In this document: in pieces, positions 56,609 to 60,224 of the stretch | How positions within the stretch are numbered: position 1 is the first letter of the stretch | Layout of the letters: every line of letters begins with the position of its first letter | DNA from: Promethearchaeati archaeon SRVP18_Atabeyarchaeia-1 | Lineage (GTDB): Archaea > Asgardarchaeota > Atabeyarchaeia > Atabeyarchaeales > Atabeyarchaeaceae | NCBI GenBank assembly: GCA_037308085.1 | Contig: CP147779.1 | Location: forward strand, 1,408,001-1,472,000 | DNA: 64,000 bases | Direction: 5' to 3' | Made by a program: the position numbers and the translations under genes | The notes under the pieces: generated by a model | The model's database searches: none | Told to the model about the DNA's origin: nothing | The model's input: the letters and a program-made list of their open reading frames with translations, nothing else

Positions 56609-56887
56609 GGGTTTCCCACATTTCCTATTTTCTATCCAACCTGAATCCCAACTGGACTGCCGCGGAGACAGTCAATCGACACATTGTTCCCCCAGCAGTT
56701 CCTCAATTGTTCTTCGCGGGTACTCGATAGTCTTCAAATAGAGATACTCGAACACAGAATATAATAGGCTATTGTCTGAGCCAATTGCCGACCCGCTTGA
56801 AGCGGCGATTCTCGCAAATCTGGTTGCAGGCGGCCCCACTTTGGCATCAGGTAGCCCAAGATCACATTCCCTGTGGCCAATTATCAC

Positions 56888-57281
56888 AATTCTGTCGCAG
56901 GGAAGCCCACGCCCTTCACGGGTGGGAGGAGCTGCAGTGGCGGCAGAGTCTAAGGGCAAAATGGGTGTCAGATGGTCTGTTTGAATGCTTCTGCCATGAA
57001 TAGTTCTTTGGGCCCTGGGGCGAGACCGCGCGGGGTGGCGCCCCCCGATGCGAAGCCTGAGTCTCTGTTTCCCAGGGCGGATCGTGGTCTCCGAGCACGG
57101 AGACGCGAAGCGTAACCCACCACGCCTGGCGAGGTGAGCGGGCTGGAAAAGCGCGGCGCGCGAAGGCCCAGGAGTCGCAACTTCCGTAACTGGCTTTCCG
57201 GAACCACCGACCCGGCGACGGGCGGACGCAGGGAAAACGAAACGGAAAGCCCACCGGCTCAAAGCCGTGGGAAGAGGTTAC
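56888..57281 (+). mobile_element. Non-autonomous IS200/IS605-family mini-element
   Basis: Left end: TCAC (56884-87) then GAAG (56902-05) and hairpin CCCACGCCC-TTCAC-GGGTGGG. Right end: AAAG (57246-49), hairpin CCCACCGGCT-CAA-AGCCGTGGG, ending TTAC (57278-81). No tnpA or tnpB ORF. Confidence 0.75.
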
Positions 57282-57301
57282 TTCTTACCTACGCTAAGGT
57301 G
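57012..57301 (+). ncRNA. Putative TnpB-type omegaRNA/reRNA scaffold plus about 20-nt 3' guide
   Basis: Abrupt GC-rich segment with perfect helices 57012-19/57071-78, 57022-26/57061-65, 57087-93/57098-104, 57192-200/57243-51, 57211-14/57219-22 (GCGA loop); GTAACC (57112-17) complementary to the terminal GGTTAC. Confidence 0.6.
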
Positions 57302-60224
57302 CGCTCCTTCGAAGTGCTTCGCTTGCTTGGAGATCAACCCGCGAATCCCTGGTTGCCTCCCCTTGCATCTCTTCGGCATCTACCACTAGAACCTTTTTCA
57401 GGAATTGCCCGGTGTATGATTGAGGAACACGCGCGATTTCTTCTGGTGTTCCTTGTGCGATTATTCTTCCCCCGTTCTCCTGCCCTCCTTCTGGGCCAAG
57501 GTCGATTACTAGGTCTGCTGTTTTTATCACATCTAGGTTGTGCTCAATTACGATCACCGTGTTGCCTGCGTCCGTAAGCCTGCTCAATACCTCCAGAAGC
57601 TTATGTATGTCTGCGAAGTGAAGACCAGTGGTGGGCTCGTCAAGCATGTAGAGAGTTTTTCCCGTAGCCCTCCTGCAGAGTTCGGTAGCCAGTTTTACGC
57701 GTTGAGCTTCGCCACCCGATAGTGTCGTCGCAGGTTGCCCCAGCTTGATGTAGCCTAGCCCGACATCGCATATCGTCTGCAGGATTGCCTTGACATGGGG
57801 TATGTTCTCGAAGAACGCGACCGCCTCATCTATCGTCATTGAAAGGATATCAGCGATGTTCTTTTCCTTGTATGTGATCTCAAGAGTCTCCCTGTTGTAC
57901 CGATTGCCTTTGCAGACCTCGCACGGAACATAGACGTCAGGTAGGAACTGCATCTCGAGCCTGATTATGCCATCTCCTTTGCATGCCTCACATCTGCCAC
58001 CGCTTACATTGAAGCTGAACCTTCCAGGTTTGTACCCCCTGGCCCTAGCTTCTTGAAGCTTCGAGAATAGATCCCTGATGAAAGTGAAGACGCCGGTGTA
58101 CGTCGCTGGGTTTGATCGCGGAGTCCTGCCAATGGGCGACTGGTCTATCATGACGGCCTTGTCGATGTTCTGAATTCCTTCGATTCTATCGTGAGCGCCT
58201 GGTTTCTCCTTGGCTCCGTGCAGCGTTCGGGCAAGGGCCCTATAGAGTATGTCGTCTAGAAGTGTGCTCTTCCCCGAGCCTGAGACACCGGTGATGCAGA
58301 TTAATAGCCCTAAGGGTATCTTCACGTCGATATTCTTCAGATTGTTCTCTCGAGCACCTCTTACAGTGATATACTTCCCATTTCCGGGTCTCCGCGAGCT
58401 CGGCACCGGTATCTTCAGCTTTCCGCTTAGATACTGACCAGTTATTGATTTCTCACACTTCGCGACTTCCTCAACGGTGCCAGACGATACGAGATACCCA
58501 CCATGCGCCCCTGCGCCTGGTCCGAGATCGACAACCCAGTCTGCCGCCCTTATTGTCTGCTCATCATGTTCAACGATTATGACTGTGTTTCCTAGGTTTC
58601 TCAGTCTCTTCAGAGTTTCAATCATCCGCCTGAGATCCCTCTGGTGTAGGCCAATAGATGGCTCGTCGAGTATATACAGAACCCCAACCAGACTCGTTCC
58701 GATTTGGGTTGCAAGCTGGGTTCGCTGTGCTTCCCCACCTGACAGTGTGCTTGTCGTCCTGTCCAAGGTTAGGTAATCGAGCCCCACATCCATCAAGAAC
58801 CCTAAGCGGCTCTTAATCTCCTTCAGGACCTGGTGGGCTATGAGTTGTTCTTTCTCAGTGAGTTTAAGAGCGTCGAAGAACTTGAGCGACTGAGACACGG
58901 ACATCTTCGTCATTTCAGCCAATGATTTTTCTGAGATCTTCACAGCCAGACTCTCTGGGCGCAGGCGGTCGCCGTTACATGCCGGACACCTCTTGACAGA
59001 CATGAACTTCTGGTACCAAGCACGCATTTCCTCGGACTTTGTTTCCACGAATCTGCGTTCCAGGTTGTTTATGACTCCCCTTGTGGGGCGTTCATGTTCA
59101 TAGAGTACCTTTTTATTCTCGTCCTCGTATCGGAACTTGATCTTCTCTTCGCCCGACCCATATAAGATCACGTGAAGCTGCTTGGCTGTCAAATCCTTCA
59201 ATGGTGTGTCCAATGAGAAGCCGTAGTGGTCTGCCAAGGACTTCATCGACTGCATCCACCAAGAATCAATGTTCTTGCTCATCGGGACTATTCCGCCTTC
59301 CGCGATCGACTTGGTCTTGTCGGGGATGACCAACTCGGGGTCGATATTCATTTTTACACCGAGCCCACTGCATTCCCTGCAAGCACCGAAGGGAGAGTTG
59401 AATGAGAAGTTCCTTGGGTTGAGCTCACCGTAGCTCACTCCGCAGTCAGGGCACGAGAGCTGTTCGCTGTAGAGCTGCTCGTCTCCGCCTTCCTTCCCAT
59501 CCTCCGCTGTTCTTATGATGACTAGTCCCTCGCTGAGTTTGAGGGCAGTCTGGACCGAGTCAGCTATCCTCCCCCTTGTCTCATCCTTGACTGAAAGCCT
59601 GTCAACAATCGCTTCGATCGTGTGCTTCTTCTTCTTGTCAACGAATCCGACTTCTTCCACCTCTACGTTCCGGCCATCTAGCCGGATCCTGACAAACCCT
59701 TGCTTTCTCAGTTTCTCCAGAATTTCTTTGTGCTCACCTTTTCTCGCTCTAACGACAGGAGCCAAGATCTGAATCCTTGATCCTGACCTCAGCTTCATGA
59801 CTTGATCGACAATTTGGTCAAGGGTTTGCCTCTTTATCTCTTTTCCACATTTGTAGCAATGAGGTATGCCGATCCTCGCAAAAAGCAACCTCAAGTAATC
59901 ATGAATCTCGGTAACGGTTGCTACCGTGGAGCGAGGGTTTCTGCTTGCGGTCCTCTGCTCAATGCAAATTGCAGGTGACAACCCCTCAATATAGTCGACA
60001 TCAGGCTTGCTCATCTGCTCGAGAAACTGTCTGGCATAGGCTGAGAGCGACTCTATGTACCTTCTCTGACCTTCAGCGTAGAGCGTGTCGAACGCCAGCG
60101 AAGACTTGCCGCTTCCGCTCACACCAGTTATGACGACCAGCTTGTCTCTCGGAATTTCAACGTCGATGTTCTTAAGGTTGTTCTGTCTCGCTCCCTTGAC
60201 CACAATCAGACTAGCGTTTCCCAT
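57294..60224 (-). CDS. uvrA: Excinuclease ABC subunit A
   Basis: Two ABC ATPase modules ([17 protein letters not shown] twice), zinc fingers, [11 protein letters not shown]. Confidence 0.97.

Follow-up and report, generated by a model that had tools for sequence, protein, structure and literature searches.

In a 64-kb stretch of DNA (hereafter the window; G000:C1:1408001-1472000) from the single-contig, 2.81-Mb genome of a wetland-soil Asgard archaeon of the Atabeyarchaeia (G000, GC content 0.496), we found a 394-bp element of the IS200/IS605 type that carries no protein gene. The reading that we favor, with a probability of roughly 0.7, is that it resembles the palindrome-associated transposable elements (PATEs) first described in haloarchaea, that its only cargo is a promoter-driven omegaRNA, and that it uses TnpA and TnpB in trans. 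Two further genomes served for comparison, one from the same genus (G001) and one from a sister genus (G002). Coordinates without a prefix follow the 64-kb window unless the contig is named, and those that begin with G000:C1 follow the genome contig; the features of the element are collected in Table 1.

An initial annotation of this DNA had described a 394-bp insert between two related imperfect hairpins, and all of the motifs that it listed are present at the positions it gave. It also took the insert to be mobile, and BLAST and hidden Markov model (HMM) searches over the genome bear this out, as they recovered eight full-length copies with 74-89% identity and two deletion stubs (1306474 and 1319876 on the contig) of ~150-160 bp that retain the ends alone, while one more copy is present in the sister-genus genome. 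The left boundary lies directly 3’ of TCAC (eight copies) or TTAC (two) in nine of the ten G000 copies and in the G002 copy; the tenth G000 copy has lost its left end. On the right, homology stops immediately after GGTTAC in six of the eight full G000 copies and in the G002 copy (seven of the nine aligned full copies), and the stubs terminate in an exact GGTTAC in one case and in GGTCAC in the other. Target-site duplications are absent, as the 3’ flanks never repeat the target tetranucleotide, and the flanks are unrelated among all ten G000 copies, each being unique in the genome. The syntenic spacer between the hypothetical gene and uvrA is devoid of the element in both G001 and G002, which agrees with an insertion at this site; the base-exact empty site that the initial annotation had proposed as a check could not be recovered from these relatives, because their spacers are too diverged or the loci rearranged. 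The element has no terminal inverted repeats (it begins with AATTCTG and finishes with GGTTAC), and both hairpins reside on the plus strand. As had been noted, the element is richer in GC (0.58-0.68) than its flanks (0.44-0.54). The statement that it contains no intact open reading frame (ORF) needs qualification, as mechanical ORFs do exist within it, for example one of 196 aa on the minus strand. However, no copy has a closed frame among the three of the minus strand, and the internal ORFs, which produce no Pfam match, are therefore an effect of composition; GC-rich, ORF-like tracts of 370-400 bp of this kind should not be named as genes in annotation. From its sequence, the element is thus best described as a bona fide non-autonomous IS200/IS605 derivative for which a plausible transposase exists in trans.

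The organization of the two ends indicates how such a transposase could find them. The left hairpin recurs in about nine other left ends of the genome, all of the tnpB type, and on the right side the order is AAAG, hairpin and then AAGAGGTTAC. When left and right ends were compared across the insertion sequence (IS) families of the genome, the tetranucleotide 5’ of the hairpin was found to covary with the cleavage tetranucleotide: GAAG accompanies TCAC at the left end of the element, at the group-A tnpB left ends and at two right ends, AAAG accompanies TTAC at the group-B left ends and at the right end of the element, and CAAG accompanies TGAC at two tnpB right ends. Judged by this covariation, the pattern is the guide/cleavage rule of IS608 from Helicobacter pylori, and the proposal that one pairing rule governs both ends of the insert extends to the IS families of the genome. 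Cleavage of IS608 occurs 19 nt 5’ of the foot of the left hairpin and 10 nt 3’ of that of the right hairpin (PMC3201880), and the corresponding distances in the element are 18 and 10 nt. Both have subterminal imperfect palindromes with a guide tetranucleotide 5’ of each hairpin, and the AAAG-TTAC combination is identical to the left pair of IS608 (PMC3201880). However, in the Asgard element this combination is located at the right end, with GAAG-TCAC at the left, its right cleavage site resembles the target whereas that of IS608 is TCAA, and neither tnpA nor tnpB is present within it.

The interior of the element has the features of a gene for a structured RNA. Alignment of the left ~150 nt with tnpB elements that share the same left end revealed a CTTAAATAC box ~30 nt upstream of the tnpB start codon (ATG), which the protein-less copies keep as GTTTAAATA or GTTTAAGTA. 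The conserved interior begins ~25 nt downstream of this TATA-like box, at the position expected for the tnpB ATG, and is the best-conserved part of the element; its 75-nt core (57110-57184) has a mean column identity of 91%, as opposed to the spacer proximal to the left end (56930-56975), which is far less conserved and contains many indels. Analysis of the aligned copies with RNAalifold and by pair counts defined six helices (H1, H2, H4, H5, H6 and H7) that are 92-100% paired, in which ten pairs are changed on both sides with pairing kept; control helices slid by 1-3 columns scored far lower. One such change is a further pair of H4, which is U-A in seven copies and C-G in two. The initial annotation had pointed to covariation as a check and to a perfect 9-bp helix near the right end; compensatory changes are indeed found in the six helices, but neither the 9-bp helix, which is present and conserved, nor the proposed pseudoknot contains any. 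It had also treated the interior as special for being almost fully pairable, which was not borne out, as the single-sequence fold is no more stable than those of shuffled sequences on either strand (minimum free energy z-score of -0.75). On the plus strand, G.U pairs occur at 12 positions and A.C mismatches at three, each of the latter in a single copy, and the RNA therefore appears to be encoded on the plus (top) strand, reading toward the right end. This asymmetry, the position of the TATA-like box and the stop of conservation at 57281 all agree with the earlier proposal of an omegaRNA-type RNA on the top strand that terminates at the right end. The RNA structure thus appears to be under selection or constraint, and the conserved plus-strand interior together with the TATA-like box probably constitutes a transcription unit for a structured RNA, transcription being predicted from these features. 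Four metatranscriptome runs from related studies yielded nothing for this stretch, an outcome that has no bearing on expression of the RNA.

Table 1. Features of the element, its predicted RNA and its neighbors (window numbering).
Feature	Position	Strand	Details
Protein-less IS200/IS605-type element, 394 bp	56888..57281	+	Homology among copies begins and ends exactly here
Target/cleavage tetranucleotide TCAC	56884..56887	+	Left cleavage site; candidate transposon-associated motif (TAM) for a TnpB
Left end	56888..56927	+	14-nt spacer, GAAG (56903-56906), imperfect palindrome CCCAC...GTGGG (56907-56927)
TATA-like box	56980..56987	+	TTTGAATG in this copy; TTTAAATA/TTTAAGTA as the family consensus; from alignment with tnpB elements
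Conserved structured RNA, omegaRNA-like scaffold, ~272 nt	57010..57281	+	5’ end putative
H1	57013-57020/57070-57077	+	92% paired; 3 pairs with changes on both sides
H2	57022-57028/57058-57065	+	2 pairs with changes on both sides
H3 hairpin	~57032-57045	+	Within 5’ domain 57013..57077
H4 hairpin, GTCTCCG/CGGAGAC	57087..57104	+	One pair C-G in 4 copies, G-C in 4
GTAACC, proposed pseudoknot 5’ strand	57112..57117	+	Unpaired in the consensus fold, directly 5’ of H5
H5	57118-57136	+	100% paired; one compensatory pair
H6	57140-57144/57165-57169	+	95% paired; one compensatory pair
H7	57151-57154/57158-57161	+	94% paired; one compensatory pair
Extra segment, ~70-80 nt	57182..57249	+	Absent from tnpB-linked right ends; conserved, no compensatory changes
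9-nt pair GGCTTTCCG/CGGAAAGCC	57192-57200/57243-57251	+	9-bp helix in the extra segment
GCGA-loop hairpin	57207-57225	+	Within the extra segment; followed by an A-rich linker, then AAAG (57246-57249)
Right-end imperfect palindrome CCCACCGGCT...AGCCGTGGG	57250..57271	+	Preceded by AAAG (57246-57249)
GGTTAC	57276..57281	+	Right cleavage site TTAC and proposed pseudoknot 3’ strand
Flank, putative guide	57282..57301	+	Overlaps the uvrA stop codon; guide use predicted
Hypothetical gene, 150 aa	56156-56608	-	Flanks the element on one side
uvrA	57294-60224	-	Other neighbor of the element

A property that links this RNA to TnpB systems is the complementarity between its terminus and its interior. Its final six nucleotides (GGTTAC) are exactly complementary to an internal GTAACC at -170, the GTAAC of which is invariant in nine of nine aligned copies; a second GTAAC that had been put forward as a partner (57186-57190) is not conserved among them. 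Equivalent complementarity is found at the right ends of the family of 421-aa tnpB genes (ACTGAC/GTCAGT, partner at -95), of the tnpB at 1955850 on the contig (GTTGAC/GTCAAC, -97), of a tnpA-tnpB element at ~1.574 Mb (GCTCA/TGAGC, -93) and of a second protein-less element at 2412925-2413367 (CGTCA/TGACG, -188), and a tnpA-linked right end that is devoid of the RNA core, described below, has no complementary internal partner. In the omegaRNA of ISDra2, residues -5 to -3 pair with residues -103 to -105 in a conserved pseudoknot (PMC10097598), and the proposed GGTTAC/GTAACC pairing fits a pseudoknot of this type. The flank that follows the terminus would then act as the guide. A flank that is unique to each copy is as expected for self-homing guides, and no secondary genomic targets of the putative guides were found in G000.

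The genome encodes a transposase that could act on the element. An intact Y1 tnpA gene (G000:C1:1955329-1955796, minus strand), whose product contains the HUH and Tyr motifs and matches Pfam Y1_Tnp with an E-value of 9e-35, is adjoined by a right end (G000:C1:1955202-1955290) that lies ~130 nt downstream of its stop codon and has the terminus GGTTAC. The last ~65 nt of this right end are 85% identical to those of the window element and 90% identical to those of the G002 copy, with weaker similarity out to ~90 nt. The left end of this tnpA unit was not found; the possibility that the tnpA-adjacent end is itself a left end on the plus strand was considered and rejected, as the guide/cleavage tetranucleotides do not fit. 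In the locus G000:C1:1955202-1957002, this tnpA is divergently arranged with a 379-aa tnpB on the plus strand, with a 54-nt palindromic, AT-rich spacer between them and an outward-facing, right-end-type hairpin and terminus after each gene (minus strand, GGTTAC; plus strand, GTTGAC). A left end could not be found in this locus, whose layout fits neither IS605 nor IS608. The sequence that the window element shares with the tnpA-linked right end comprises the distal part of its extra segment and its right end (approximately its last 90 nt), and it is therefore mosaic, combining a left part of the tnpB type with a right-end module of the tnpA type. The scaffold's additional length may serve TnpA rather than the RNA. 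The initial annotation had suggested that the expanded scaffold could define a new class of archaeal omegaRNAs. Its predicted length is ~270 nt, but a new class, although possible, is not established, because long omegaRNAs are not unusual (the structure of the ISDra2 omegaRNA was determined with a 247-nt RNA whose 5’ half is disordered and can be dispensed with; Nakagawa et al. 2023, PMC10097598); moreover, the extra ~80 nt travels with the tnpA-type right-end module.

Candidate nucleases are more numerous, as the genome contains some 40 or more tnpB-like loci (49 matches to the Pfam TNB domain, several of them broken), among which intact 421-aa TnpBs belong to elements with the same left end and TCAC target as the protein-less element. 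Another tnpB family, at about 1964899 and 2422716 on the contig, targets TTAC. In the 421-aa family (G000:C1:1948236-1949581 and its copies, with the first of these carrying its tnpB gene at 1948311-1949576) the ORF spans the whole omegaRNA region of ~120 nt, and the right end (ACTGAC) contains its TGA stop codon within the final 4 nt. The 421-aa tnpB elements resemble the protein-less one in their left-end hairpin, their target and the position of their TATA box; their RNA core can be weakly aligned with its core, and the same landmarks follow in the same order, namely the pseudoknot strand, the helices, a GAGTYGCAA motif, the right-end hairpin and the terminal strand. Unlike it, they are 1346 bp long, encode a TnpB and terminate in ACTGAC. 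The protein-less element differs from such ~120-nt tnpB-linked versions by two additions, the 5’ domain H1-H4, which is supported by covariation, and ~80 nt between the GCAA motif and the right-end hairpin. The initial annotation had called for a search for tnpA and tnpB genes with the same ends, and such genes exist: one intact tnpA adjoins a right end nearly identical to that of the element, and intact tnpBs share its left end and TCAC.

These features suggest a mechanism for the propagation of the element. A Y1 TnpA supplied in trans would recognize both subterminal hairpins and would cut and paste the element as single-stranded DNA, locating the cleavage sites via GAAG, which would pair with TCAC on the left, and AAAG, which would pair with TTAC on the right. 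The tnpB-type TATA promoter, fused directly to the region for the ~270-nt top-strand structured RNA, would direct the synthesis of a transcript that presumably continues beyond the right end into flanking DNA. The last six nucleotides of the RNA would pair with the internal GTAACC to form the pseudoknot that is typical of TnpB guide RNAs, and the ~16-20 nt of flank that follow would serve as the guide. A TnpB encoded by a different element, for which the 421-aa proteins are candidates, would take up this RNA and cleave the empty donor site, composed of TCAC followed by the flank from 57282 onward, and recombination would then probably restore the copy of the element.

Several observations weigh against this reading. 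The best non-self matches of a covariance model of the RNA core are the sense 3’ ends of three copies of the 421-aa tnpB family, with E-values of only 7-9 genome-wide; nhmmer gives an E-value of 0.02 when the search is restricted to tnpB 3’ regions, and the local alignment of the core to a tnpB-linked omegaRNA scores ~2.3 standard deviations above shuffled sequences. No tnpB with the scaffold of the protein-less element was found in G000 with nhmmer or the covariance model, and the covariance model produced only a chance match, inside a CDC48-like gene, over 150 other Asgard genomes. A search of public genome contigs for the exact conserved pattern returned only the sister Atabeyarchaeum genome, in which no tnpB with the scaffold was found, and a search of public metagenome contigs returned no match. 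A cognate TnpB was therefore not identified. Within the family the pseudoknot contains no compensatory change, and three copies with altered termini break its pairing. The right terminus TTAC is itself an accepted target, and a longer TAM would have to be needed to avoid self-targeting. Finally, the counts of compensatory changes overstate the number of independent events because the copies are related by descent, and structure in single-stranded DNA is, in principle, another possible source of the top-strand G.T asymmetry.

Part of this evidence would also suit an inert deletion relic, a TnpA-mobilized PATE or miniature inverted-repeat transposable element (MITE) composed of leftover tnpB 3’ sequence and right-end DNA, whose RNA has no function. 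Beyond the missing cognate TnpB, the two stubs demonstrate that loss of the interior can occur, the termini are degraded in several copies, and the single-sequence fold is not unusually stable. However, such a relic does not explain why the interior is better conserved than the spacer next to the left end, why ten pairs have changed on both sides with pairing kept while slid controls score far lower, or why the TATA box is retained at the right distance; in addition, the internal motif matches the element’s own terminus even though the terminus module is a tnpA-type end. We consider such a relic decidedly unlikely. An RNA that is functional but not a TnpB guide, acting as a regulator of transposition, as a stabilizing or antisense RNA that reads into neighboring genes, or as the partner of another protein, would account for the weak homology to known omegaRNAs and for a covarying 5’ domain (H1-H4) and an extra 3’ segment that have no counterpart in tnpB-linked right ends, and the predicted read-through would be antisense to the 3’ end of uvrA. 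This alternative also appears unlikely, as the position, strand, right-end end point and terminus-to-interior complementarity of the RNA follow the plan of TnpB omegaRNAs (PMC10097598), and a common antisense target is improbable given that each copy has different neighboring genes.

The structured interior could also be read from the opposite strand, as an IscB/IsrB-type (HEARO-like) omegaRNA on the minus strand whose 5’ guide derives from the right flank, a reading to which we give hardly any credence. The omegaRNAs of IscB are long and GC-rich, with the right end as their boundary (PMC10055086), and the genome does contain three RRXRR (IscB/IsrB-like) loci; however, the element gave no HEARO match at E-values up to 10, the plus-strand G.U pairs would become A.C mismatches on the minus strand, the TATA box lies upstream on the plus strand, and the HMM of the element finds nothing near the RRXRR genes. 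The IscB-type reading was rejected on the strand evidence and the absent HEARO match. The RRXRR Pfam matches themselves (G000:C1:774713-775186, 793465-793992 and 817276-817548) have E-values from 1e-60 to 2e-30, and their open frames span 248-388 aa; a copy of the element (784309-784674 on the contig) is located among these loci. Housekeeping RNAs, among them RNase P and the signal recognition particle RNA, were rejected as well, since the element region yielded only two chance matches to Rfam at E-values up to 10, and the better match to a housekeeping RNA that the initial annotation had named as a refutation did not occur.

The PATE-like reading places the element close to systems already described in bacteria. 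Elements without protein genes that resemble PATEs occur in Geobacillus, PATEs often encode omegaRNAs, and a PATE with the ends of an IStron has also been described (Meers et al. 2023, PMC10055086). The general idea of a protein-less guide RNA element has therefore already been published for bacteria, and the present element is a well-supported further example in a new lineage with some distinctive details; a paper on the mobile elements of Atabeyarchaeia makes no mention of TnpB, IS200/IS605 or MITEs. Like PATEs, the element has IS200/IS605 left-end and right-end hairpins but no protein gene, would be mobilized in trans and contains an omegaRNA-like right part that would require the TnpB of another element. 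In contrast to them, it resides in an Asgard genome, its own tnpB-type TATA promoter is fused to the RNA, this RNA is about twice the length of the tnpB-linked versions in the same genome with no close tnpB-linked counterpart found, and its ends are mosaic, the left being that of a tnpB family and the right that of a tnpA-linked end. The likeness to the ISDra2 omegaRNA (also called reRNA) lies in a predicted long, top-strand RNA that extends to the right end, takes a 3’ guide from the flank and pairs its pre-guide nucleotides upstream; the 5’ region of the ISDra2 RNA is partly dispensable. The two have no detectable sequence similarity, the pseudoknot partner of the element is at -170 versus about -103, and the element’s RNA, whose binding by a TnpB is predicted, is not embedded in a tnpB ORF. 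Its value is thus that of a well-characterized archaeal example with an expanded, mosaic scaffold. It suggests that a guide-RNA gene can, by itself, persist as a mobile element in an Asgard archaeon and diversify while keeping its promoter, scaffold and ends, and it supports the view that IS200/IS605 systems are modular, with TnpA, TnpB and omegaRNA each able to act in trans. The approximately ten natural, putatively trans-acting guides also offer material for asking which tnpB-like locus loads a foreign omegaRNA.

Other protein-less elements are present in the genome. The second one mentioned above, a single-copy, 443-bp element (G000:C1:2412925-2413367, minus strand), has a left end that matches that of a tnpA-tnpB element at ~1.573 Mb. 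Besides a TATA box and a GCGA-loop hairpin, it possesses a structured interior that is long and a different right-end hairpin, of the CCAAC/GTTGG type. It has an extra segment analogous to 57182-57249, and its similarity to its tnpB-linked right end is not significant by local alignment. The two mini-element families thus have different hairpin specificities, but each possesses its own promoter-like box, a 5’ structured domain and an extra segment of ~75-95 nt with a GCGA-loop hairpin, and the extra segments place the pseudoknot partner at -170 and -188, respectively, as compared to about -95 in tnpB-linked ends. These parallels could mean that the families represent a distinct, expanded omegaRNA architecture that evolved without a linked tnpB, and that in the family of the window element the internal pseudoknot strand became matched to an acquired tnpA-type right-end module, a tentative idea that we hold to be rather doubtful. 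If it is true, these would be autonomously evolving mobile guide-RNA genes that hyperparasitize both TnpA and TnpB and have features that promote stability or TnpB loading in trans.

A third protein-less family comprises three copies of ~260 bp (G000:C1:~1174400-1174710 and ~1971800-1972122, both on the minus strand, and ~1604389-1604700 on the plus strand). It combines a TTAC-type left end with a GCCCAC hairpin, a TTTAAAT box and a scaffold of ~150 nt with a right end of the other hairpin type (CCAAC/GTTGG, terminus GCTCAC), so that its ends are also mosaic. An orphan right-end fragment (G000:C1:428639-428745, minus strand) consists of GCAAC, a hairpin, AAACGAAACGGGAAG, a right-end hairpin and the terminus GGTGAT; its CCAACC/GGTTGG hairpin contains compensatory changes and a GCGA-like loop, and it has neither a left end nor the RNA core.

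At the locus in the window, the element lies 12 nt downstream of the stop codon of uvrA (57294-57296, minus strand). ARAGORN found no tRNA gene in the 64-kb window, and no Rfam family was matched there at gathering thresholds. A pair of hydrogenase genes precedes the stretch formed by the hypothetical gene, the element and uvrA. Elsewhere in the genome, the ~25-kb region G000:C1:1947000-1973000 is an IS-rich island in which at least six tnpB genes, belonging to several families, are clustered with a single tnpA and a number of left-end hairpins.

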